Shown here: piece after piece, positions 1 through 32,000 of the stretch
Numbering within the stretch: the stretch's first letter is position 1
Layout: every line of letters starts with the position of its first letter
NCBI GenBank assembly: GCA_001790095.1
Contig: MGBH01000001.1
Location: 1,184,932 to 1,216,931, forward strand
Direction: 5' to 3'
DNA length: 32,000 bases
Origin: Candidatus Saccharimonadota bacterium
GTDB lineage: Bacteria; Patescibacteriota; Microgenomatia; UBA1406; GWC2-37-13
Made by a program: the position numbers and the translations under genes
The notes under the pieces: model-generated
The model's input: the letters and a program-made list of their open reading frames with translations, nothing else
The model's database searches: none
What the model was told of the DNA's origin: nothing

Positions 1-1172
1 CAGAAATTAATTGTTTTGATGAAGGTTGGATTTTTTTGACATGACTGGCATCGAATTCCTCCACTGGGGATACATTGGGAAAATCCGTATTGATAACTAC
101 AGGAAAACTCAACGAAGTCTTTTGGATTAGCTGACCCAACGACAAACAAACATTGCATTTGTGTACATATGTCTGAAGGTTTTCCTCGCAATGTCGTCCA
201 TGATCCGTTGGCATTTCTCAGATAATCACATCCAAACTGAGTTGCTTTTGTTGCTCCCCCCGCAGCAGATTCCTCAATCCACAGCGATATGACGAAAAGC
301 GGATTAAAGTTATATTGTTTTGCCTTTTCTTGAACAAGCTCCCAATGATCAAGAAGCTTAGTGGATGTGAAATAGGTAGGATAAAATGTCCTCATTTTCT
401 CATATGCTTTTTTGATGACTGTTTCATCGACAGTACAGTTTGGATTACGATAGGGGATGGAGTAGTTCTTTGTCCCTGTGAAGTCAAATATTTGATTATT
501 TGTACGAGGGGTGTCTAGGTAGGGGTTGGGATAATGAATATTATATTCGGCTAGCTTTTCATCAAGTTCACGGCAGTCAGACGGGGGCGGCGGAGTCGGT
601 TCCCCGGTCGTTGTCATCACCGGCGGACGGATCATAAGACCAAACAAGGTAAACAGATCGGTAAGACCTTGTTCAGGGCTCTTGGTGACATAGGGAGTCT
701 GTACTTCCTCCATGGTCTTATCCGAGATGATGGTGGTCTTGATATTGTCTACAAGGCGAGGATATCCTTGAGTCTTTGCCCACTTAGCAAATGAGGCATC
801 AGCCTGAGGAGTCTTCCGGGTGACAACAAGCTTAGAGAGGTTGGGAGCATAGTCAAGGATAAAGTCCTCTTCTTCAAGAGGAAGAGAGAGGGAAGATTGT
901 ACTTCCTTCAGTGTTTGTTGTGCTTCCTGTTCTGTTTTCTGTTCTGCCTCTTTCCTTGCCTTCTGTTCTCTATCCTCCTCTACAAAAGAGGAGTTAGAAG
1001 AAGAGGAGGAAGAGAGAGATGAGGAGTATCTCTTATCTACTTGTACAGCTGTTGGAAAGGGAGAGGTTATCGAGGAGGACTCAGGCTTACTCTTTAGTAA
1101 AGATTGAATAAAAAATATACCTATCACAAGGATAAAGAGTATGGAAAGTGCAATGACAAGGTATTTTTTCAT
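1..1172 (-). CDS. Membrane-anchored secreted modular protein, paralog A (3' end lies beyond the window edge): shared N-terminal module plus its own Cys-rich C-terminal domain (possibly lysozyme/lytic-transglycosylase-like)
   Basis: Absent from the ORF track because there is no stop inside the window. Hand translation from ATG 1172: MKKYLVIALSILFILVIGIFFIQ (TM anchor), Ser run, EQKARKEAEQKTEQEAQQ linker, small domain, ...MIRPPVM. The unique part follows: TTTGEPTPPPPSDCRELDEKLAEY...QYNFNPLFVISLWIEESAAGGATKATQFGCDYL...IRCQSCQKNPTFIKTINF, open to base 3. Apart from the start-proximal codons, the first ~185 codons are nucleotide-identical to the 5' part of 30828..32000. TATAAT (1182-1187, minus) lies 9 nt upstream of the ATG. 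Confidence 0.8.
   Translation of the reverse strand, partial: MKKYLVIALSILFILVIGIFFIQSLLKSKPESSSITSPFPTAVQVDKRYSSSLSSSSSSNSSFVEEDREQKARKEAEQKTEQEAQQTLKEVQSSLSLPLEEEDFILDYAPNLSKLVVTRKTPQADASFAKWAKTQGYPRLVDNIKTTIISDKTMEEVQTPYVTKSPEQGLTDLFTLFGLMIRPPVMTTTGEPTPPPPSDCRELDEKLAEYNIHYPNPYLDTPRTNNQIFDFTGTKNYSIPYRNPNCTVDETVIKKAYEKMRTFYPTYFTSTKLLDHWELVQEKAKQYNFNPLFVISLWIEESAAGGATKATQFGCDYLRNANGSWTTLRGKPSDICTQMQCLFVVGSANPKDFVEFSCSYQYGFSQCIPSGGIRCQSCQKNPTFIKTINF
615..1169 (-). repeat. Copy A of a 555-bp intragenic direct repeat (partner 31422..31988)
   Basis: Compared by eye base by base. The offset is 30807 up to about 1060. Copy B then carries an extra 12 bp (tandem ggaaagggagtt), and the offset is 30819 to the end. 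I noticed no substitutions. Identity stops sharply at both ends (codon after PPVM; a few codons after the ATG). Confidence 0.9.
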
Positions 1173-2913: not shown

Positions 2914-5055
2914 ATGAATATGCAATATCAGTCACCTGAGGATGAAGGAAATGTACTGGAAAAGTACACCATCAATCTTACTTCAAAAGCAAGGGAGGGG
3001 AAGATAGATCCAGTAATTGGAAGAAATGAAGAGATCCGTCGTGTCATACAAATACTGTCGCGCCGAACAAAAAATAATCCAGTACTTTTAGGTGATCCAG
3101 GGGTGGGTAAAACTGCAATTGCTGAGGGGCTTGCACAACGCATTGTTGATGGTGATGTGCCAGATACATTGAAACATAAAGAGCTTTTGGTCTTGGATAT
3201 TGCTGGTATATTGGCAGGAGCTGCATATCGGGGAGAGTTTGAGAACAGATTTAAGAAAATCCTTGAAACGATAGAAAAAGGTGATGGAAAACACATCCTT
3301 TTCATTGACGAACTTCATACCATCGTTGGGGCAGGTGGAGCTGAGGGAGCAATAGATGCAGGCAATATGTTAAAACCTGCTTTAGCGCGTGGGCTTCTTC
3401 ATGCAATAGGTGCAACGACGGTCAGAGAATACCGTCAGTATATTGAAAAAGATGCCGCTCTTGAACGACGCTTTCAACCGGTTTATATCAATGAACCAAG
3501 CATTGAAGATACTGTTGCGATACTACGAGGGATTAAGGAAAAATATGAAGTGCATCACGGTATTAAAATATCAGATAACGCAGTGATTGCAGCGGTTAAT
3601 CTTTCGGTCAGATATATTACTGATAGATATCTTCCAGACAAGGCAATTGATCTTATTGATGAGGCGGCGGCATCGGCGAAGATAGAAATAGATTCATTAC
3701 CCGAGGAGCTTGATGAAATGAAGCGCAGAATCATTCAACTTGATATTGAGCTCGCAGCTTTAAAAAAAGAAAAAGGACTTGATGTTCGAAAAAAAGTCCT
3801 TGAACAAGAGAAAAATAGACTCAAAAGCACATTTGACAAACTTTACAAACAATGGAGTGAAGAAAAGCAAATCATAAGCGATCTACAGAAACATAGGTTA
3901 AAACTTGATGTTTTGAAGGGACAGTTTGAAAAAGCTGAACGCGAGATATTACTTGAAAAAGCAGCAGAACTTAAATATGGGAGCATTCCCCAGGAGGAAC
4001 AAAAAGTAAAGGACTTGGAAAAACAATGGAGAGCTATCTCATCTGATAAGCGCTTATTAAAAGAAGAGGTAAGGGAAGAAGATATTGCGACCATTGTTGC
4101 TCGCTGGTCCCATATACCAGTTACGCGTCTTTTAGAGACGGAATCTAGCAAGCTACAACATCTTGAAAAAGAATTGATGGCAAAAGTAGTCGGGCAAGAT
4201 CATGCATTGTCTCAAGTCGCAAGAGCTGTCAGGCGATCTCGTGCTGGACTTTCTGATGAAGACAGGCCTATTGGTTCTTTTTTATTTTTGGGACCAACGG
4301 GTGTTGGAAAGACTGAAACAGCAAAAGCTCTTGCATACAGCTTGTTCAATGATGAAAAAGCTCTTATTCGTATTGATATGAGTGAGTATCAAGAATCCCA
4401 TACGATAGCACGATTCATTGGTGCTCCTCCAGGCTATGTCGGATATGAAGAAGGTGGGCAGCTTACTGAAGCAGTGCGTAGAAAGCCATACTCTGTAATT
4501 CTATTTGATGAAGTGGAGAAAGCTCATCCTCAAGTTTTTAATGCCTTTTTGCAAATACTGGATGAAGGAAGACTGACTGACGGACGGGGGAGGACTGTTA
4601 ACTTTAAAAATACGATTCTGATCATGACCTCAAATATTGGTAGTGAGCTATTTCAATCTGGGAAAGAGACAGAGACAAGGAATAATAAGATTCTTGAAAG
4701 AGTGGGAGCGTTTTTCCGGCCGGAACTTATCAACAGACTTGATTCAATCATCATATTTCACAGTTTAAACAAAGAGATGATGAAACAAATTATTCGTATT
4801 CAAGAGAGTCATCTGAAAGAGCGCTTTCACAAACAGGGTCTCGCTCTGACTCTAAGTGAAAATATGGAAAATTATCTCTTATCAGTCGGTTTTGATCCAA
4901 TATATGGGGCAAGACCTTTAAAGCGGGTGATAAATGAGAGCATTGTTGATGAGATTGCTCTTCGAATAGTTGAGGGAAAGATTAAGTTAGGAGACAAGAT
5001 AATAATAGATCATAAACAGAACAAAGTACAGATCTCTATAAAAAAACCAAACTAA
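2914..5055 (+). CDS. clpB: ClpB-type AAA+ disaggregase lacking the N-terminal domain
   Basis: Walker A1 [13 protein letters not shown], Walker B1 ILFIDELH, Walker A2 [14 protein letters not shown], Walker B2 [11 protein letters not shown] long coiled-coil middle domain sits between the modules ([25 protein letters not shown]...). The protein begins directly at [19 protein letters not shown], so the ~140-aa N-domain is absent. Confidence 0.93.
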
Positions 5056-5438
5056 TTAAGCACAGTCTTTGGCGCAGTCTTTTTACGCCATAATAGTACT
5101 GAGACGATGAGACCAAGTATAAACCCGCTTATACCACTAAGAAGTATATATATGGGTACAATTTTTTGTTTTTCTTGAGCTTTTTTGATGGCGTCTTGAA
5201 AGATGGTGTTAGTCTGTTGACAATTCTTAAGAGATACATCTTTTTCTTCACTTTTTTTCTTACATGCATCGAGTTCTTTTGTATCTTTTATGGGAATAGT
5301 TTTTTGTGGTAGTGTGAAATCATAATTAAGCTGTCCCGGGACTGCATAAACATACTTAAAAGTACATAAAAAAGTTAAACTGCATAAGAAAACAACAGCA
5401 CCCCATTTACTACTACACAAAGTCTTTTGGATCAGCAT
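5052..5438 (-). CDS. Hypothetical secreted/membrane protein (N-terminal hydrophobic signal, C-terminal TM)
   Basis: 128 aa. N-terminal [15 protein letters not shown] hydrophobic stretch and C-terminal [25 protein letters not shown] helix followed by RKK. ATG start with TATAAT 8 nt upstream. The 3' end overlaps the clpB stop by 4 nt. No recognisable family. Confidence 0.55.
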
Positions 5439-24110: not shown

Positions 24111-27100
24111 ATGGCAGCAACAAACCCGGAACATCATACAGGAGCACCGACAGAAAACGACACATTAAAAGCTGAGGTAGCAAGACAGTCCGCATCACAG
24201 CTCGTTGATGAAGTAAAGAAGATAGGAAAGATGGCCGGTGAAGTCAAACGCGCCGTGGATGCTTCAGTTGATGCTGCAAGAAAGGCTCCTGACACGTTTG
24301 AAGGAGACAAACAAGATAAAGATACTGCACGAGGTCGAGCTCACAGCGTGCAACGAACAGTAAAAAAAATCTTAATGGCAGCAAGATTCCCTGATAAATT
24401 AAAGCCAATCCCTGGAGAGGACGCACAAAGAGAAGTCGTGACACCGATCGCTTCTTCACTTCTCAAACAGTTAAGTAGTCGCATTGATCCGGAATATGAT
24501 GTATCAGAACAGACAGCCCCTTATCTACATCAAATCATAGATAAGGTACTTAGCGGAGGGATAGCAAACGCTGATGATCTGAAAATTGAGCTTGATAAGC
24601 TAAACAACCTTAAGCTTGTGAATCCGGACCTGTATAAAGAGGTACAGGAATCATTTGTTGAGGTCGCAAAAGATACAGGAGTGAGTGAAAAAGATGCAAA
24701 ACAGAAATTTAATGTTGAAGAGCCACCTGTAGAACAAACCCAACCCACGCCTGACAAACCAGCAGACCTGCCACCGCAAGAATTAACACCTGATCAACAA
24801 CGGGAACTTATGAATAAAGCAAGAGAAATGCAGGCGAGAGAGATGCATGGAGAAGGTAGAACTGAGTTTGATGCTTCATGGGGGCGTTATTTTTCTGATT
24901 ATTTTTCTGTATCAGACCAACCCCTTTTAAAAGCCATCTTTGACCCTGAAGAATTTAAATCATATGTTGAGACTGCTAAAGAAGAGGTTGCAAGACAGTT
25001 GGGATTGGCAAAAACCGATGATGATGTTGGAAAAAAGGTATCAAAAGATATAGAGCGGGGTGTGGTTGAACTATTTGGTAAGCTATATACACGACTTGAC
25101 CATGAACGGGCAAGTGAATTCTTTGAGCAGATAGAACAACAAGACGTAATGTCAGGTATCTTGCCTGCTAAAAATGCACTGAAGCGGCGACTGGAGAAGT
25201 TGGCAACAGCTCTTCACCATGATGGAGATTTGGGTTTATTTAAAGATGGAGAGATAAAGTCTGAGAATTCAGATATACCTTTTAAAGACAAAGAGGGGAA
25301 AGTAAGACTTAAACCACGACTTCTTATCCATCCATATCCTGAAGCAAAAAGGGCATCGACCTCAGACTTCATACACTATCTTGATTTAAAGATTGACACA
25401 TATATTGATACGCGCAAATATACTCACGATGCGCGAGCTATTTTTTTACATCCAGTTGATCCAGAAAAAGGTTTTTATTCACAACTTGCCCGTTTTGCCG
25501 AACAGATGACGACCGTTGATTTTGATCAAATGTTTCTGCTTCCTGATGCCGACATCTTTCAAAGCGCACTTCTGCTTTATGATAAACATGTTGATGAGAT
25601 GTTTGCAAAAAATGATTGGCGTCATGCTCCGACCATGTTTCAACCAAAATCAGGAAGTCATCGAAATCAGCTAGAAGAAGACGTATTGCATAGATTAAAA
25701 CAAATGTATGGAAAAGATGTGAGTGATGCTCGACTTGATGCCGCCGTCACCATGGCTGTTGGAGCATCAAGAGGAATGTTTTTGACAGAGATAGAAAAAG
25801 CGGCTTTTGCCGATCCGCATGTAAATGAAGATGGAAGCATAACGTATGCGAGCTATTACAATAATGACACTTCAGCTCTTAACGCTTTTAATCCTATGCA
25901 TACGTTTTTGCGCTTTCAGGGAGTCAGAAGCACAGATCCTATCTTATTTATGCCTGTTGAAGGAGATAAATTTCAAGGATCAGTCTTTACTGATCATCGA
26001 ACTATGTGGAAAAACATGATGGCATATAAGGATGCATTTATAAGCGGTCGGAAAGGTGCCGGTTTAAAAGAAGGAGAGGTATTGTTTGCAGACTACCTTA
26101 TGAATATCGGAAAAGTAGGAGGTCCTATGGAGCGGAAAGGTTGGAGAACTACCTACATATTACAACCTCTTTATTATAAGGATAAAAAGGGTATAACAGA
26201 GGGAGAACAAACAAGTGAAATTTTTGATCATGTACATACGTGGCAAAGATTTGAAAATATCGGTTATGAGATAGCACAAGACTTTGTTACAAAACTGAAG
26301 CCTGATTTTAAGGGGGCATATGCAGGAGGCGCGGGTTTAGCAAACGAACGATACGTAGACCAAAAAAAGGCACTTTTTAGCTACATATTTGACAGATATT
26401 TTACTGATCAGAAAGACACAACAACAGTAGATGCATATTTAAAAAACATTAGAAAAAACGCTGAGGCGGAAGTATGGAGAAGTATCAAGGAAGGCAAGGC
26501 GCCAGCTCCAAATGATGTAAGGGCAGAGATAGAGTCTCATGTCACTATGACATTTCTTAACCGGACTCTTTCTCGCTTGGTAGCTCAACGAATTCCCTCT
26601 AAAATCCTTCGGATAGATCGTGACCGGATGAGTGAAGCTGGAAAAAGCAGATGGCGTACCATCGCTGAGGAGATGTTTCCTGAAAAGGAGGTTGGAGATA
26701 AACAATCTGAGAAGTTTGACATGGTAATAAAAGATCTTCTTTTCGCTGAACAACTGCTTAGATCTGAAGTAAGCGCAAAGATGAGAGAGATAAAAAAACT
26801 ACCCGAAAGTGAACACTGGAAGTTTGGCCATATTTCATATGAACTAACCCAAGAGACTGCAAGAGCTTTGCTTGCTGCAAAAGGATTTGATCAGGCACAG
26901 ATAGATAAAGTATGTACTCTTCTTGGCAAGATCGAGACTCATTTTACCCATAATACGAATTTCTTGGATAAGACACTTCTTAAATTTGTACAAGCAGGGG
27001 ATACTATTGTTAAAGAATACAAATTTACATTTGGACTTGAAGAGCTTGATATGAGTTTTATCCCGTGGAGAGCTGCCGGAAACAGGATGTTACCGCGTGC

Positions 27101-27785
27101 AATAGGAGACATATCGGTTACAGAAAAAGCAGTCGCAGGAGAAATCATGAAGCTACCCGCGACTTTGAACAAGATAGCGATAGATGGTAAGCACGACTTT
27201 TCTCCTATCCTTGAAATCTGTGAAAAAGTGTACGGCTCCATGGAGGGTATCATCGGTCCTGATTATGCTCACAGACTAGTACATCACATAGCAGCAACTA
27301 CTATAAACTATTTTAAAAAAGATACGGTAGCCAGGTGGGCACATGGATTATTTGGTATAGGACGGAGAAACTCTCTTGCAGCGGAGCGAGCAGGAGGAAG
27401 TTCAAGAGTATGGGAATGGGATAGTACTGATATAGATCGTTTTTGTGTTGCACTTGAATCAAGAAGTGTTCTGCCAAATAGCAGTAGAAATCCATCGAAT
27501 CCAAAGCCTGAGTATGCTCCTATTTATATCAATCGGCACTTTTTTGGAAAACCAATCAAACTTCCCATGGAAATCAAAATGTTTGGAAGATCTATTCCAC
27601 TTTTTAGGAAGCGCAAACCTGACTTTGCATGGACTATAAAGAATTTACGTGATAAATTTGGAGGAAATTGGAAAGATATCGCTTTCGATATGGTAAACAA
27701 ATACATACCATTTGTTATTGCATGGCTATTATTAAAATATATAAAAGATGCACTCGATGAATCAGAAGGAAAAAAGAAAAAATAG
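24111..27785 (+). CDS. Giant orphan protein (1224 aa), no signal peptide, short hydrophobic segment near the C-terminus
   Basis: Uninterrupted 3.7-kb ORF with an ATG start. Charged, Ala-rich N-terminal ~200 aa, then a Pro-rich linker (EEPPVEQTQPTPDKPADLPPQELTPDQQ), then ~950 aa of aromatic-rich globular-looking sequence, ending in YIPFVIAWLLLKYI + DALDESEGKKKK. I found no Walker A or other motif I recognise. Confidence 0.8.
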   Translation: MAATNPEHHTGAPTENDTLKAEVARQSASQLVDEVKKIGKMAGEVKRAVDASVDAARKAPDTFEGDKQDKDTARGRAHSVQRTVKKILMAARFPDKLKPIPGEDAQREVVTPIASSLLKQLSSRIDPEYDVSEQTAPYLHQIIDKVLSGGIANADDLKIELDKLNNLKLVNPDLYKEVQESFVEVAKDTGVSEKDAKQKFNVEEPPVEQTQPTPDKPADLPPQELTPDQQRELMNKAREMQAREMHGEGRTEFDASWGRYFSDYFSVSDQPLLKAIFDPEEFKSYVETAKEEVARQLGLAKTDDDVGKKVSKDIERGVVELFGKLYTRLDHERASEFFEQIEQQDVMSGILPAKNALKRRLEKLATALHHDGDLGLFKDGEIKSENSDIPFKDKEGKVRLKPRLLIHPYPEAKRASTSDFIHYLDLKIDTYIDTRKYTHDARAIFLHPVDPEKGFYSQLARFAEQMTTVDFDQMFLLPDADIFQSALLLYDKHVDEMFAKNDWRHAPTMFQPKSGSHRNQLEEDVLHRLKQMYGKDVSDARLDAAVTMAVGASRGMFLTEIEKAAFADPHVNEDGSITYASYYNNDTSALNAFNPMHTFLRFQGVRSTDPILFMPVEGDKFQGSVFTDHRTMWKNMMAYKDAFISGRKGAGLKEGEVLFADYLMNIGKVGGPMERKGWRTTYILQPLYYKDKKGITEGEQTSEIFDHVHTWQRFENIGYEIAQDFVTKLKPDFKGAYAGGAGLANERYVDQKKALFSYIFDRYFTDQKDTTTVDAYLKNIRKNAEAEVWRSIKEGKAPAPNDVRAEIESHVTMTFLNRTLSRLVAQRIPSKILRIDRDRMSEAGKSRWRTIAEEMFPEKEVGDKQSEKFDMVIKDLLFAEQLLRSEVSAKMREIKKLPESEHWKFGHISYELTQETARALLAAKGFDQAQIDKVCTLLGKIETHFTHNTNFLDKTLLKFVQAGDTIVKEYKFTFGLEELDMSFIPWRAAGNRMLPRAIGDISVTEKAVAGEIMKLPATLNKIAIDGKHDFSPILEICEKVYGSMEGIIGPDYAHRLVHHIAATTINYFKKDTVARWAHGLFGIGRRNSLAAERAGGSSRVWEWDSTDIDRFCVALESRSVLPNSSRNPSNPKPEYAPIYINRHFFGKPIKLPMEIKMFGRSIPLFRKRKPDFAWTIKNLRDKFGGNWKDIAFDMVNKYIPFVIAWLLLKYIKDALDESEGKKKK

Positions 27786-27808: not shown

Positions 27809-28588
27809 ATGATACGGAACATAACATTAATTAGCATTTTTTGTTTGTTTTTTCTTCTAAAATCAAACGTTTTAGCACAGTCTCCTACTTCAAGCTGTCC
27901 AGGGTTTAATGGAGGACCAGAACCACTGATGTTGGGTGTTAACTGTGGCGTAATAAACAGTAGTAATCCCTGTAGTGCGAAATGTTGTGCCGAACAACCC
28001 TTTTCAGTACACGCGTCAATACCTGGAATATTTAATGTTCTTCCTGGTGCTCAAGATGTTGTTGATGATTTTTTGAGAGACAAATTAAATCCAATACTTG
28101 AATATAAAAGGCAGGTTACTATGCAACCGTGTATCAATATGGGTAGTCCTACTACCCCCGGAGATCTTTCAAATGCAGCCTGTGTTTGTTTAGAACCTAC
28201 TCCAGCCACCTTATCTGCAATACTTAATTTGTGTCAGAATATAAAAAATACAAATGAGAGAGATGCATGTAATAATTGTTTGCAAGGAAATACTTCTGAC
28301 CGTAAGGTAGGTGTATGGACGGGTATCGGTTGTGTATATAGTGATATAAATGGATTTATTCAACATACTCTTTTAGGTTGGGGTATAGGGTTGGCTGGGG
28401 GAATATCTATGCTATGTATCCTCTATGCGGCTTTCATGATGCAAACATCCAGAGGTAATGCAGAGGTGGTAAAAAAAGCTCAACAACTCATGACTTCATG
28501 CATAACAGGTCTTATGCTTATTATATTTTCAGTATTCATACTCAGATTAATTGGAATCACAATCCTAAGAATACCCGGATTTAACTAA
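27809..28588 (+). CDS. Secreted Cys-rich protein ending in a VirB2/TrbC-like (T4SS-pilin-like) two-helix hairpin
   Basis: Signal peptide MIRNITLISIFCLFFLLKSNVLA|QS and an ectodomain with 12 Cys. The C-terminus is GWGIGLAGGISMLCILYAAFMMQTSRGNAEVVKKAQQLMTSCITGLMLIIFSVFILRLIGITILRIPGFN. That is, helix - short polar loop (S-R-G-N-x-E-x-V-K-K-A) - helix, the topology of TrbC/VirB2-type pilins. The family assignment comes from memory of that pattern, not from a search. Confidence 0.7.
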   Translation: MIRNITLISIFCLFFLLKSNVLAQSPTSSCPGFNGGPEPLMLGVNCGVINSSNPCSAKCCAEQPFSVHASIPGIFNVLPGAQDVVDDFLRDKLNPILEYKRQVTMQPCINMGSPTTPGDLSNAACVCLEPTPATLSAILNLCQNIKNTNERDACNNCLQGNTSDRKVGVWTGIGCVYSDINGFIQHTLLGWGIGLAGGISMLCILYAAFMMQTSRGNAEVVKKAQQLMTSCITGLMLIIFSVFILRLIGITILRIPGFN

Positions 28589-28596
28589 GTTGAAGT

Positions 28597-30333
28597 TTAT
28601 TTTTTCTCTCCTTGTTCAGTGGGATTATCCGATTTAGCTTTATATCGAGCCGTATCAGGCGCAGGCATTCCGCTTGTTCCTATCATCTGACCAATTGTTT
28701 TACCAGTAATCGCACTGAGACCCATACTTAAAGTACTTATTTGGCCAACCAAGCTCAGTCCTCCACCAGCCGCAGAACCTGCGCCTCCAAAGAATGTCCC
28801 TAAGCCAAGATTTATTGGAAGAGGCTTTATGCCGAGTGAATCCTTAACTAGTTTTACAAGATCAGGTATCATAAACATTATTCCTAACCCCAACAGTGTT
28901 GAAAATGCCAAAGGATCAATGCCTAGCAAAAAGGGTGGAAACCAGAAGTCGCCAGGATAGGCAAGAGAGTTCATAATGACGTTTCCAACAAGAAACACAG
29001 TAATAATCACAGGAAAAGTAAGTAATTCAGCGAGAAGATTCTTAAACCAAGTAGTAAAACCGGACTTTCCAGGTATTGCATCAATAAGAATAAAAAGTGG
29101 AGCGGTTACGATTAAAAATAATATTTGAAGATATGCACGAAACAACATAAAAAACACACGAAATACCAGAGCAATAATAGTAAAATAGATAACTAGTCCT
29201 ATGATGACTCCGGCACCATATAACATAAGATATGCAAATATTGCAGCAAAAAGAGTCGTTGAACCAACAGACAATAAAGTACTACCAACAAGTTTTCCTA
29301 AATTTATTCCAAATGTGGCAGCCTCAGCACCCATGTTATCAACTAATTCCATGACTTTAAAAGGATATGTGAGAAGTATTGAGAAATCTTTTATTAAAAA
29401 AAAGCCTGCAAATGCTCCACTCACTAATCTAAACACATTATTTACATATGTTGGAAATAGAGTCATAAAGGCAGTTCCAACATCAGTGATAGTTCCAAGA
29501 AATACATCACCTGAGATCCCAGTTAAGTTTTTTCTAATTGGTTGGAAAGAAAGATATATGTTCCAGGGCGTTGCTGATAAATATTCATTTTGCATACTAC
29601 CTACATCGTAATTGGCGCCTCCATTACTTAAAATTGATATTATTATTGCGATTAATATATACATTAGATCAATCAAGAACCCGGCAATTGCAAAGGAAAA
29701 AGTTATAAGCAGAAGTGAAGTTACGATCTTGGGAAGTGCATTCTCAACAGAAATGACTGTTTGAGGATTAATTTTCGTACGAAACATAATCATGAAACCA
29801 ATTGAAACAAGGATAATGACAAGGATAAGATATGCGATATCCCTAAATATTTTCCATACATTCATAAGAGGCTTTATTGCTCCAAATCCCATACCTTCAG
29901 ACGCATATGATTTGGGTACAAATCCAGCATCTTGAAGATTGGTATATACCCAGTATATGCCTGATGCAGGTGGGTTCGCAAAAGGTATAGTGATAAGTTT
30001 AGAGAGATATCCTGAAACACTTTTTGAGACGTTTTTATCACCATCACTAGGATTATCTGTACATGCTTCACCGCTAAAAAAACAGGTATGCATGCGATAG
30101 ATAAAAAGAGCGATTTTACCACTCTTCTTAGCATTAAGCTCCTTATTATTAAGCGCTTTATAAATCTGTTTTCTTGCCAGTTGAGTGACATTTTTTGGAT
30201 TGTATTGTGGTTTATTTTTAGAGAAAAATGAAGCAAAAATCCCAATAATAAAAGCGTAGACTATAAGTACAATTATAGCTTTTTTGCCAAAATTAAAACA
30301 TGAACGAAATAACTGTTTTACCATCGGTATCAT
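28597..30333 (-). CDS. Polytopic membrane protein with Gly-rich C-terminal tail, possibly VirB6/TrbL-like
   Basis: 578 aa. N-terminal anchor, ~110-aa extracytoplasmic segment, then at least 8 hydrophobic helices (e.g. IAYLILVIILVSIGFMIMF, SLLLITFSFAIAGFLIDLMYILIAIIISIL, VIIGLVIYFTIIALVFRVFFMLF). The tail is GLGTFFGGAGSAAGGGLSLVGQ... It is the last gene of the minus-strand operon, 13 nt after the 159-aa ORF. Confidence 0.65.
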   Translation of the reverse strand: MIPMVKQLFRSCFNFGKKAIIVLIVYAFIIGIFASFFSKNKPQYNPKNVTQLARKQIYKALNNKELNAKKSGKIALFIYRMHTCFFSGEACTDNPSDGDKNVSKSVSGYLSKLITIPFANPPASGIYWVYTNLQDAGFVPKSYASEGMGFGAIKPLMNVWKIFRDIAYLILVIILVSIGFMIMFRTKINPQTVISVENALPKIVTSLLLITFSFAIAGFLIDLMYILIAIIISILSNGGANYDVGSMQNEYLSATPWNIYLSFQPIRKNLTGISGDVFLGTITDVGTAFMTLFPTYVNNVFRLVSGAFAGFFLIKDFSILLTYPFKVMELVDNMGAEAATFGINLGKLVGSTLLSVGSTTLFAAIFAYLMLYGAGVIIGLVIYFTIIALVFRVFFMLFRAYLQILFLIVTAPLFILIDAIPGKSGFTTWFKNLLAELLTFPVIITVFLVGNVIMNSLAYPGDFWFPPFLLGIDPLAFSTLLGLGIMFMIPDLVKLVKDSLGIKPLPINLGLGTFFGGAGSAAGGGLSLVGQISTLSMGLSAITGKTIGQMIGTSGMPAPDTARYKAKSDNPTEQGEKK

Positions 30334-30346
30334 ATTTTATTCTACA

Positions 30347-30826
30347 TCATTTAAACCCAAATCTATCCAGCGGAATATTTGGGTAATTAGTATTAAGCCA
30401 CAGATCAAAGTCTTTTTTGTTAATATCCTTTGGCTCTTTAAGGGTAACGATAAAAATATCATTTGCATAGTCAAACGTAATGGTAAAAGAATCTTCGCTA
30501 AGGGGAGTTTTTTGTCGAAGCTCCCTTTTTTGGACAGCAAGATCAGTTTCTTCTTGAGGGATGTTTTGTTTTTCAAGTCCGCCGGTAAAGGTGGGGGCAA
30601 GGGGGGGAAGGGTTGGGAACGTATCGGGTCCCTGAGGTTCTTCATGAGGCGTAATATTAAGTTCTAACGGTTGTTTTGGTTCAATGAGTGTTGGAAGAGG
30701 AAGCTTAGTAGGTTTAGGTTGGGATGGAGTTTGTTTTTTTGTCTGTGGTATGAAAAGGATGATCACTATCAAAACAAGAAGAAATATAAAGGGAACGACG
30801 TAATAGAGTTTTATGTTTGAGTTCAT
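30347..30826 (-). CDS. Small anchored Pro-rich protein carrying the same ~45-aa domain as the shared module of the two paralogs
   Basis: 159 aa. TM anchor VVPFIFLLVLIVIILFI, a Pro-rich linker, then PLSEDSFTITFDYANDIFIVTLKEPKDINKKDFDLWLNTNYPNI. This aligns with PLEEEDFILDYAPNLSKLVVTRKTPQADASFAKWAKTQGYPRL of the 390-aa protein. It starts 1 nt after the upstream stop. Confidence 0.7.
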   Translation of the reverse strand: MNSNIKLYYVVPFIFLLVLIVIILFIPQTKKQTPSQPKPTKLPLPTLIEPKQPLELNITPHEEPQGPDTFPTLPPLAPTFTGGLEKQNIPQEETDLAVQKRELRQKTPLSEDSFTITFDYANDIFIVTLKEPKDINKKDFDLWLNTNYPNIPLDRFGFK

Positions 30827-30827
30827 A

Positions 30828-32000
30828 TTATTTTTTTACTCCAAAAGCTGCGATATATTTAGGAAATGGATAACGACTATTTTCATTTATGGGTGGAGTA
30901 GAGTTTTTACCATAGTAGGGGTCAAAAGCGTATATGTTGCCCTCCTCATCTATATCAGTGATCCAGAAATAATGTCCGCACCCGGCTTCACAATAACTTG
31001 CAAGTGCAAATATGGTCCACCCATTGTCTAAGTATGATCTAAAATCATCAATCACATCCTCCGCAATATATTTTGTAGCACTATAGGGGAGTATATAATC
31101 TGATGTTTTTACTCCATGACTACTTAAAGTTCCCTTAGCTACACCAAGACCTGTGCCACAACCTGCACCACCCACTGATTTATATATATCTACCACCTCA
31201 GGGGGAGTGTATTTTGTATCGATAAAGCTTGAAAGGATCATAGCAACAGTCGTTGGGCCACATCCGCCTCTGCAAATACTGCAGCTTTCAGTCAGCGGAT
31301 AATCATCATATGGTCCATCACATTGGGGATAGTAAATATATCCTCCATATGATTTAGGAGAAGAAGAACTGGAAGAACTTTTTGGTTTTTCCGTCACCCT
31401 CGGAGTCACTCCTCCCGTAACCATCACCGGCGGACGGATCATAAGACCAAACAAGGTAAACAGATCGGTAAGACCTTGTTCAGGGCTCTTGGTGACATAG
31501 GGAGTCTGTACTTCCTCCATGGTCTTATCCGAGATGATGGTGGTCTTGATATTGTCTACAAGGCGAGGATATCCTTGAGTCTTTGCCCACTTAGCAAATG
31601 AGGCATCAGCCTGAGGAGTCTTCCGGGTGACAACAAGCTTAGAGAGGTTGGGAGCATAGTCAAGGATAAAGTCCTCTTCTTCAAGAGGAAGAGAGAGGGA
31701 AGATTGTACTTCCTTCAGTGTTTGTTGTGCTTCCTGTTCTGTTTTCTGTTCTGCCTCTTTCCTTGCCTTCTGTTCTCTATCCTCCTCTACAAAAGAGGAG
31801 TTAGAAGAAGAGGAGGAAGAGAGAGATGAGGAGTATCTCTTATCTACTTGTACAGCTGTTGGAAAGGGAGTTGGAAAGGGAGAGGTTATCGAGGAGGACT
31901 CAGGCTTACTCTTTAGTAAAGATTGAATAAAAAATATACCTATCACAAGGATAAAGAGTATGGAAAGTGCAATGACAAGGTATTTTTTTGAGTTATTCAT
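30828..32000 (-). CDS. Membrane-anchored secreted modular protein, paralog B: shared N-terminal module + papain-fold Peptidase_C39-like cysteine peptidase domain
   Basis: 390 aa; the ATG is the last three bases of the window. The N-terminal ~190 aa are shared with paralog A. The C-terminal domain has CSICRGGCGPTTVAMILSSF (nucleophile Cys in a C-G-P-T context as in C39-like peptidases), CGHYFWITDID (His) and AFDPYYG (Asp/Asn candidate). Confidence 0.75.
   Translation of the reverse strand: MNNSKKYLVIALSILFILVIGIFFIQSLLKSKPESSSITSPFPTPFPTAVQVDKRYSSSLSSSSSSNSSFVEEDREQKARKEAEQKTEQEAQQTLKEVQSSLSLPLEEEDFILDYAPNLSKLVVTRKTPQADASFAKWAKTQGYPRLVDNIKTTIISDKTMEEVQTPYVTKSPEQGLTDLFTLFGLMIRPPVMVTGGVTPRVTEKPKSSSSSSSPKSYGGYIYYPQCDGPYDDYPLTESCSICRGGCGPTTVAMILSSFIDTKYTPPEVVDIYKSVGGAGCGTGLGVAKGTLSSHGVKTSDYILPYSATKYIAEDVIDDFRSYLDNGWTIFALASYCEAGCGHYFWITDIDEEGNIYAFDPYYGKNSTPPINENSRYPFPKYIAAFGVKK
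31422..31988 (-). repeat. Copy B of the intragenic direct repeat (partner 615..1169), 567 bp because of a 12-bp tandem duplication
   Basis: Identical by eye to copy A except for gttggaaagggagttggaaagggag (about 31858-31884) versus gttggaaagggag in copy A. This gives PFPTPFPT versus PFPT. Confidence 0.9.

Follow-up and report, generated by a model that had tools for sequence, protein, structure and literature searches.

Introduction

A VirB2-type pilin is commonly seen as little else than a helical hairpin, and the type IV secretion systems (T4SSs) of monoderm bacteria were long thought to be free of pili. In the VirB2/TrbC/TraA systems, assembly is presumed to draw on processed subunits that are pooled in the membrane. 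VirB2-like pilins are also known from Patescibacteria and are essential in a cultivated member of the phylum (PMC10633639, PMC12857230). Southlakia epibionticum ML1 has an essential pilin array in its T4SS locus, and arrays have been reported in Microgenomatia as well (PMC10633639, PMC12102498, PMC12857230). Their recent discovery as essential proteins of Patescibacteria has been singled out as one of the most intriguing developments in research on T4SSs (PMC12857230). Published surveys treat them as small proteins and make no mention of a cysteine-rich ectodomain. Here we analyze a 32,000-nucleotide stretch of the Candidatus Saccharimonadota bacterium assembly GCA_001790095.1 (contig MGBH01000001.1, positions 1,184,932 to 1,216,931 of the forward strand), which we call the window. 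It contains, at 27809..28588 on the plus strand, a gene for a 259-aa protein in which a pilin-like C-terminal hairpin is joined to an ectodomain with 12 cysteines.

The protein resembles the Patescibacterial pilins of the Pfam family T4SS_pilin (PF18895) in having a signal peptide, two hydrophobic helices and a short loop with the motif S/Q-x-G-x-A-E-K-x-K, and it shares with them the phylum and the origin-proximal location. The differences concern both the protein and its genomic setting. Canonical PF18895 pilins are ~100-150 aa long and have a short mature N-terminus, whereas here a domain of ~160 aa with 12 Cys is found. The PF18895 arrays are hypervariable tandems, while the present gene is mostly single-copy and its hairpin is 71% identical among relatives. 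Each helix has an invariant Cys, unlike in the canonical small pilins examined, and a recognizable virB4 is not adjacent, unlike in the case of the Patescibacterial array pilins. The equation of PF18895 with "VirB2-like" is taken from the literature (PMC12102498, PMC10633639, PMC12857230), and not from tests in this analysis.

More distant systems offer partial parallels. The predicted helix-loop-helix, the basic loop and the location of both termini on the outer side are shared with the VirB2/TrbC/TraA pilins (T-pilus, F-pilus, RP4; PF04956). There is, however, no detectable sequence similarity to these pilins of diderm T4SSs, the host is monoderm, and the known VirB2-type pilins lack a large disulfide-rich head. 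The Mbov_0395 family (NF045849) of Mycoplasma integrative and conjugative elements, i.e. an example of monoderm conjugation, is described by an 80-position two-helix profile that is weakly similar to the hairpin; judged from this 80-position model, it apparently has no Cys-rich ectodomain. The general design, a hydrophobic anchor or polymerization element plus a disulfide-stabilized exposed head, is also that of type IV pilins and type II secretion pseudopilins, but these proteins are unrelated to ours. Our protein has no class III signal peptide (G↓F/M-x-x-x-E; the arrow marks the cut), its N-terminus being MIRNITLISIFCLFFLLKSNVLA↓QS, and the hydrophobic element is a C-terminal hairpin, whereas in type IV pilins it is a single N-terminal helix. 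Scans against Pfam and NCBIfam did not return any type IV pilin family.

We favor the explanation, at about an even chance, that the protein is a specialized VirB2-like pilin (PF18895) with a displayed disulfide head, and that it serves as a minor, tip or initiator subunit rather than as the bulk pilin. While the VirB2-like pilins of Patescibacteria are already known, the architecture with a Cys-rich head, which is widespread in the relatives of this protein, has apparently not been described so far: in the open-access literature that we searched, no description of a Cys- or disulfide-rich Patescibacterial pilin was found. We note that a part of the family is automatically annotated as pilin and that one member is named "pilin" by NCBI. 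Where the current annotation is "hypothetical protein" with no Pfam match, such genes are overlooked.

The gene and its predicted precursor

The open reading frame (ORF) at 27809..28588 (+) begins with ATG, includes the stop codon and encodes a precursor of 259 aa. A first-pass annotation of the window had singled out this ORF, and both the ORF list and the translation show it to be real, with the sequence features exactly as quoted there. One public gene call (P0001, 219 aa) begins at Met41, i.e. at window position 27929 instead of 27809, and the signal peptide is thereby lost; the start of the 259-aa form is backed by other public records and by homologues. The public records for the exact 259-aa protein carry no Pfam annotation.

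Three hydrophobic segments were found by hydropathy analysis, at aa 4-24, 187-211 and 226-258. The first of these lies in the signal peptide (aa 1-24; 27809..27880 (+)), which ends at a predicted signal peptidase I site, VLA↓QS. The mean pairwise identity of the signal peptide is 24%. A small-x-small motif, usually followed by Gln, is kept at the position of the predicted site across the family alignment. The cleavable signal peptide suspected in the first-pass annotation is backed both by the hydrophobic segment and by the family. An AlphaFold2 (AF2) model calculated from an alignment of 45 sequences has a mean predicted local distance difference test (pLDDT) value of 79.

Homology of the C-terminal hairpin to pilins

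The hairpin occupies aa 179-259 (28343..28585 (+)) and is recognized by the Pfam alignment, by hhalign and by the AF2 helices. It consists of helix 1 with the transmembrane segment TM1 (~187-211, containing C203), the loop 212-226 (TSRGNAEVVKKAQQL), helix 2 with TM2 (~227-250, containing C231) and the tail LRIPGFN. The AF2 model has helices at 180-213 and 218-247 with pLDDT values of 81-92. A C-terminal helix/loop/helix with the loop SRGNAEVVKKA (214-224) and the end RIPGFN had been read from the sequence earlier; these elements are present, but by the AF2 helices the hairpin is ~80 aa long and not ~65. The positive charges of the loop are R215, K222 and K223, and the invariant basic pattern of this region is Q-x-S-x-G-N-x-E-x-x-K-K-x-Q.

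The query alone matches PF18895 with E=0.025 at aa 188-247, which correspond to profile positions 12-70 of 71. Its relatives match more clearly: 40 of the 45 do so at E<=0.01, with a best value of 4.5e-7, and when ten long relatives were scanned, six were above the cut-off of 26.6 bits and one was equal to it (range 26.6-34.7 bits). The profile of the hairpin was also compared by hhalign with two canonical PF18895 pilins of 105 aa, one from the conserved neighborhood of a related genome and the other from a contig of the same population, which encodes an identical 578-aa protein (see below). The probabilities were 96.3% (E 1.6e-9) and 96.0% (E 4.8e-9), and the alignment spans the polar loop motif (MMSQGSAEKMKSGKAKIT vs MMQTSRGNAEVVKKAQQLMT). 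The same-population pilin itself scores 33.1 bits against PF18895.

A second profile, NF045849 (Mbov_0395 pilin-like conjugal transfer protein) of NCBIfam, is weakly matched by the query at aa 187-247 (E=0.004, 16.8 bits). The curated cut-off being 40 bits, this is a distant similarity and not membership; weak matches to the same model were obtained for 44 of the 45 relatives (best E=1.2e-6). On the strength of these profile comparisons, we count the hairpin as homologous to the Patescibacterial T4SS pilins of PF18895, a relationship that is solid at the level of the family. In other words, the pilin kinship proposed in the first-pass annotation holds for the T4SS_pilin profile at family level, while the TrbC/VirB2 model, which had been named beside it, gave no match.

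Hydrophobic helices readily yield spurious profile matches, of which the weak hits to NfeD_membrane and DUF4064 are examples, and the single-sequence matches to the pilin profiles are below threshold. One could thus argue that the protein is holin-like, or some other two-helix membrane protein, and that the pilin matches are artefacts of hydrophobic bias. The match takes in the polar loop motif (S-x-G-x-A-E-K-x-K), however, and so extends beyond the hydrophobic helices; nearly all members match two independent pilin profiles, one from Pfam and one from NCBIfam; and canonical PF18895 pilins are present in the same neighborhood. We consider an artefact of this kind very improbable.

The two helix cysteines, C203 and C231, are invariant in the family and absent from the canonical small pilins examined. 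C203 is located 10 residues before the turn and C231 13 residues after it, i.e. they are predicted to lie at a similar depth, which is compatible with a contact between them.

The cysteine-rich ectodomain

The precursor contains 15 Cys, at positions 12, 30, 46, 55, 59, 60, 108, 125, 127, 142, 154, 157, 175, 203 and 231. One is in the signal peptide (C12), 12 are in the ectodomain and each hydrophobic helix has one (C203, C231). The count of 12 given by the first-pass annotation was right, as all 12 come after the predicted cleavage site and before the first membrane helix, and so were the spacings CC (59-60), CVC (125-127) and CNNC (154-157). Cys makes up 7.4% of the ectodomain as opposed to 0.69% in the 22 other proteins of the window, which is an 11-fold difference (binomial P ~2e-9), and the Cys richness is therefore beyond chance.

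Two parts can be distinguished in the ectodomain. The distal head (aa 25-105; 27881..28123 (+)) contains C30, C46, C55, C59 and C60; it is variable, with a mean pairwise identity of 26%, and the AF2 confidence is moderate (pLDDT ~52-79). The Cys-rich "neck" (aa 106-178; 28124..28342 (+)) contains C108, C125, C127, C142, C154, C157 and C175 and is conserved, with a mean identity of 43%. All seven neck cysteines are invariant or nearly so in the family alignment, and the motifs PSTPGD and GVWTGxGC are found in this part. The neck is modelled confidently by AF2 (pLDDT ~74-95, with the peak over residues 141-180) as a small helical part followed by a beta-hairpin that leads directly into helix 1. 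The head had no match in Pfam, NCBIfam or the PDB by sequence searches, nor by Foldseek at the level of structure.

The distribution of the cysteines among relatives is informative about their pairing. Ten of the ectodomain Cys are invariant or nearly so in the 45 sequences. The remaining two, C30 and C55, are both present in 11 of the 45 and both absent in 34, with zero exceptions, and such joint gain and loss in the alignment is the hallmark of two disulfide-forming cysteines that were acquired together. Moreover, the number of ectodomain Cys is even in 224 of the 229 relatives in which the ectodomain can be delimited, the even counts seen being 10, 12, 14, 16, 18, 22, 24, 28 and 32. Because the cysteines are invariant, C30 and C55 co-occur and the counts are even, six disulfides are very probably the state of the 259-aa protein, i.e. 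the likeliest one, with the head fully bonded.

The topology follows from the signal peptide and from the two helices with the basic loop (R215, K222, K223) between them, an arrangement that would place the head outside the cell. The co-occurrence of C30 with C55 and the even counts are in agreement with this, as had been supposed at the outset for the Cys-rich part. We count it as shown that the Cys-rich domain is extracytoplasmic and oxidized.

Size of the family and variability of its members

A word-indexed search gave 289 homologues at E<=1e-3. An exhaustive phmmer search of 1.84 billion cluster representatives gave 6448 at E<=1e-3, of which 3812 also passed E<=1e-10 and 176 even E<=1e-30. 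Nearly all named sources of the homologues are Roizmanbacteria, Microgenomates or "Patescibacteria group". Many metagenome-assembled genomes titled "uncultured Gammaproteobacteria bacterium" (binchicken co-assemblies; L006, L008-L010 and others) show the full Roizmanbacteria-type gene order, and these titles look like taxonomic mislabels.

It is conspicuous that conservation climbs toward the membrane: the mean pairwise identity is 26% in the distal head, 43% in the neck and 71% in the hairpin, and within the hairpin it reaches 77% in the loop and 79% in helix 2/TM2. The pattern CxC..C..CxxC..C plus one Cys per helix is found in 251 of the 259 relatives fetched, whatever their N-terminal part. 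That part ranges from almost nothing to ~400 aa, and a single protein can contain as many as 35 Cys, i.e. relatives place different and larger Cys-rich heads on the same neck and hairpin. In P0244 and P0250 (654 and 631 aa) ~210-270 aa follow the hairpin, and the predicted topology would put this extension outside as well; the extension of P0244 has a weak beta/gamma-crystallin-like match. Taken as a whole, the alignments give the pattern of a conserved stem that displays variable extracellular domains, possibly at both of its termini.

The gene is mostly present in a single copy per genome. When a hidden Markov model of the hairpin was run against all six-frame ORFs of the window, it returned this gene alone, so the window holds no hairpin paralogues. 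The expectation of the first-pass annotation that such families are often multi-copy did not hold for this subfamily, which is mostly single-copy and not a multi-copy array. By its distribution in the sequenced genomes, it belongs to the core genes of Roizmanbacteria/Microgenomates.

The same data can be read as those of a static, membrane-anchored component that never polymerizes. Its hairpin would either anchor it permanently by two helices or make it a fixed part of an envelope complex, together with the 578-aa, 159-aa and C39_2-like proteins encoded next to it. The head, just above the membrane or the wall, would have a structural role, bind a receptor or act in gating. This would be in line with the single copy in most genomes, with the hairpin identity of 71% as opposed to ~25% within Patescibacterial pilin arrays (PMC12102498), with the invariant helix cysteines C203 and C231 that canonical small pilins lack, and with the confidently modelled beta-hairpin that joins the bulky head straight to helix 1. 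On the other hand, the full pilin signature is kept, including the loop motif common to canonical pilins; a simple anchor would have no need of a cytoplasmic loop with 77% identity; and the varied domains that relatives have at either terminus of the hairpin fit a display scaffold. We regard a static component as the main rival of the specialized pilin; it accounts equally well for the strong conservation and for the helix cysteines, but we consider it less likely than not.

The conserved gene module

The gene order around the pilin-like gene was compared in 84 related loci, mostly GTDB species representatives. It is nearly invariant: DUF2298 (-), LeuRS (+), rpmH, YidC (+), Jag (+), the 1224-aa protein (+), the pilin (+), the 578-aa protein (-), the 159-aa protein (-) and the C39_2-like protein (-). 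Judging from this order, we count it as shown that the pilin gene belongs to a conserved envelope module. The locus is origin-proximal according to its gene content: it lies beside rpmH-yidC-jag, and less than 10 kb away there are a RecF-like gene and a canonical pilin. The T4SS genes of Microgenomatia are likewise reported to be origin-proximal (PMC12102498).

The gene of the 1224-aa protein (24111..27785 (+)) has the same direction as the pilin gene, is separated from it by 23 bp and lies directly upstream of it in 63 of the 84 loci. Scans that included those of individual family members gave no Pfam, NCBIfam or meaningful PDB sequence match for it. The protein has no signal peptide, ends in a short hydrophobic, Lys-rich C-terminal tail and contains many near-invariant His, Asp, Arg and Trp positions.

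On the other side, the convergent gene at 28597..30333 (-) adjoins the pilin gene in 77 of the 84 loci and encodes a polytopic membrane protein of 578 aa. The protein is 100% identical to one recorded for Candidatus Roizmanbacteria RIFOXYC2_FULL_38_9. We found 1098 homologues of it; a pair of Cys (C84, C91) is invariant in this family, and the AF2 model of the protein is all-helical. Here again, no Pfam or NCBIfam domain was found, member-wise scans included, and no meaningful PDB sequence relative. The top PDB matches in Foldseek were stalk chains of the R388 T4SS, including the TrwI/VirB6-TrwJ/VirB5 complex, and DotA; with E values of 0.4-2.4 these are non-significant. They hint, at the level of structural models, that the protein may be a candidate for a highly diverged VirB6-like platform, i.e. 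the "missing" VirB6 of Microgenomatia (PMC12102498). The rigid synteny with a polytopic membrane protein and the lack of a VirB4 nearby would also suit the static component described above.

The next gene, at 30347..30826 (-), is syntenic in 54 of the 84 loci. It encodes a protein of 159 aa that begins with a membrane helix, continues as a linker rich in Pro and Thr and ends in a small, conserved domain. No informative family or PDB match was obtained for this protein, member-wise scans included. The gene is followed at 30828..32000 (-) by that of a membrane-anchored, papain-like Peptidase_C39_2 protein of 390 aa (PF13529, E=1.3e-6; the score is 29.4 bits and the cut-off 24), which is syntenic in 53 of the 84 loci and may be a cell-wall hydrolase of the module.

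That a Peptidase_C39_2 protein and a large membrane protein adjoin the gene of a small, Cys-rich secreted protein brings to mind a toxin or a bacteriocin-like factor, secreted or active on membranes, which is matured or exported by means of a C39-type peptidase and the polytopic neighbor. Weak, scattered matches of single family members to ribosomally synthesized and post-translationally modified peptides and to AgrD point in the same direction. The leader, however, is a classical Sec-type signal peptide and not of the double-glycine type, and the C39_2-like neighbor is a membrane-anchored single-domain protein without a fused ABC transporter. Toxin loci are usually variable, whereas this core gene is inherited vertically, lies near the origin and keeps the same neighbors in the species representatives of Roizmanbacteria/Microgenomates. 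The C-terminal hairpin, moreover, is homologous to pilins. Such a factor is, in our view, a most unlikely identity for the protein, and the bacteriocin and holin readings were both rejected on the leader type, the synteny and the homology of the loop motif.

Outside the module, the genes found on related contigs are those of a giant ClpB-like protein, two small unknown genes, that of a canonical PF18895 pilin and a RecF-like gene; on the contig of the same population, the canonical 105-aa pilin is ~8 kb from the gene. The giant ClpB-like AAA+ protein (L085:4569-8291 (-) and its equivalents in L001 and L003) has 1240-1397 aa, compared to 713 aa for the ClpB-like protein at window positions 2914-5055, and next to this giant gene come the two small unknown genes and then the canonical 105-aa PF18895 pilin.

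A possible mode of action

If the protein is a specialized pilin, its life cycle could be as follows. The precursor would be exported by Sec and cut after VLA, and the N-terminal domain of ~160 aa would fold outside the cell with its six disulfides. The C-terminal helix-loop-helix would insert as a hairpin with both ends outside and with the invariant basic loop toward the cytoplasm. From the membrane pool, the hairpin would be handled by the type IV secretion-like envelope machine of the lineage, with the 578-aa convergent protein as a candidate VirB6-like assembly platform. It would then join a pilus-like stem, the loop lining the lumen and the termini pointing outward as in known VirB2-type filaments, and the disulfide-stabilized head would be shown on the surface, in contact with a host or substrate.

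The incorporation into a stem is suggested because VirB2-type pilins have the loop toward the lumen and the termini outside and are assembled from a membrane pool on a VirB6 platform. The role of a minor, tip or initiator subunit is favored because the gene is single-copy, the hairpin is conserved, the head is variable and a canonical pilin is encoded nearby. Polymerization, the position at the tip, the partner role of the 578-aa protein and the binding function are the parts of this scheme that we infer.

The nearest functional analogy may be the minor pilin VirB5. A VirB5-type protein sits on the VirB6 platform and ends at the tip of the pilus (R388 structure 7o3v), and the present protein would similarly be a single specialized subunit with an exposed domain, encoded beside a candidate VirB6-like protein. 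VirB5 itself, however, is soluble and helical and has no hairpin of the pilin type, and no sequence or fold similarity to it was detected.

Several observations weigh against the pilin explanation. To our knowledge, a filament has never been seen in these organisms. According to our geometric estimate, it may be difficult for a VirB2-type helical lattice to accommodate a head of 17 kDa on each of its subunits. The query alone scores 15.1 bits against PF18895, i.e. below the gathering threshold of 26.6. PF04956 (TrbC/VirB2) was not matched by the query at E<=1 or by any of the 45 relatives at E<=0.01. When profiles of the hairpin and of the whole family were searched against the PDB sequences, no pilin was retrieved. 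In Foldseek, the only helical-hairpin matches were non-significant ones, including the archaeal conjugation pilin 8dfu (E=2), and the VirB6-like fold signal of the 578-aa neighbor is statistically weak (E 0.4-2.4). No VirB4 or other recognizable T4SS ATPase is encoded in the window, nor within 10 kb in three annotated related loci. Finally, the conservation of the hairpin and the single copy contrast with the hypervariable pilin arrays of Patescibacteria (PMC12102498), and fit a static component equally well.

A more far-reaching version of the specialized-pilin explanation can be formulated for Roizmanbacteria and related Microgenomates. They would possess an origin-encoded surface organelle, in which the pilin with the knotted head seeds a filament on the diverged VirB6-like 578-aa platform and ends at the tip as a host-contact element or adhesin, in the role of VirB5. 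Heads with 10-32 ectodomain Cys, each specific to a lineage, would tune the host range, and the 1224-aa, 159-aa and C39_2-like proteins would be hitherto unrecognized parts of the machine. In this complete form, the scenario is speculative and rather unlikely.

If the favored explanation is true, a pilin stem would be able to serve as a display scaffold, the protein would be a tangible candidate for the part by which uncultured, ultrasmall epibionts touch their hosts, and a five-gene module of otherwise unannotated proteins would supply the candidate partners. If the reading of the 578-aa protein is also true, it would be a possible answer to the seemingly "missing" VirB6 in Microgenomatia (PMC12102498). 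We see the chief value of the locus in the candidate host-contact element and in the entry point that it offers to a conserved module of dark-matter envelope proteins.

Other features of the window

The other genes of the window are of the housekeeping type. They encode SOD, TrmD, a ClpB-like protein, DprA, RpiB, RNase Y, RecX, RecA, a ComM-like protein, an ATP-dependent ligase and two GT2 glycosyltransferases, besides the DUF2298 protein, LeuRS, YidC and Jag mentioned above. In a promoter and terminator scan of the window, sites were no commoner than in shuffled controls, and none were found in the 23-bp gap upstream of the pilin gene. Neither Rfam nor a tRNA scan gave a match in the window.

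An exact direct repeat of 449 bp is present at window positions 615-1063 and 31422-31870. It encodes most of the N-terminal linker region shared by two paralogous minus-strand genes, namely the C39_2-like gene (30828-32000) and the gene at 3-1172, the C-terminus of which is cut by the start of the window. The C-terminal domain of the latter is different from that of the C39_2-like protein; it contains Cys and has no Pfam match. An "ES" motif had raised the suspicion of a lytic transglycosylase for the gene at 3-1172, which was dropped as Pfam gave no support. The metagenome contig L087 joins across the 449-bp repeat, so that SOD adjoins the C39_2-like gene; either the assembly is wrong at this place or the DNA has truly been rearranged. 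A further ORF of 128 aa, at 5052-5438 (-), contains 5 Cys (3.9%); it belongs to no Pfam family and has weak matches to NCBIfam membrane proteins, and it may be another small Cys-containing envelope protein.

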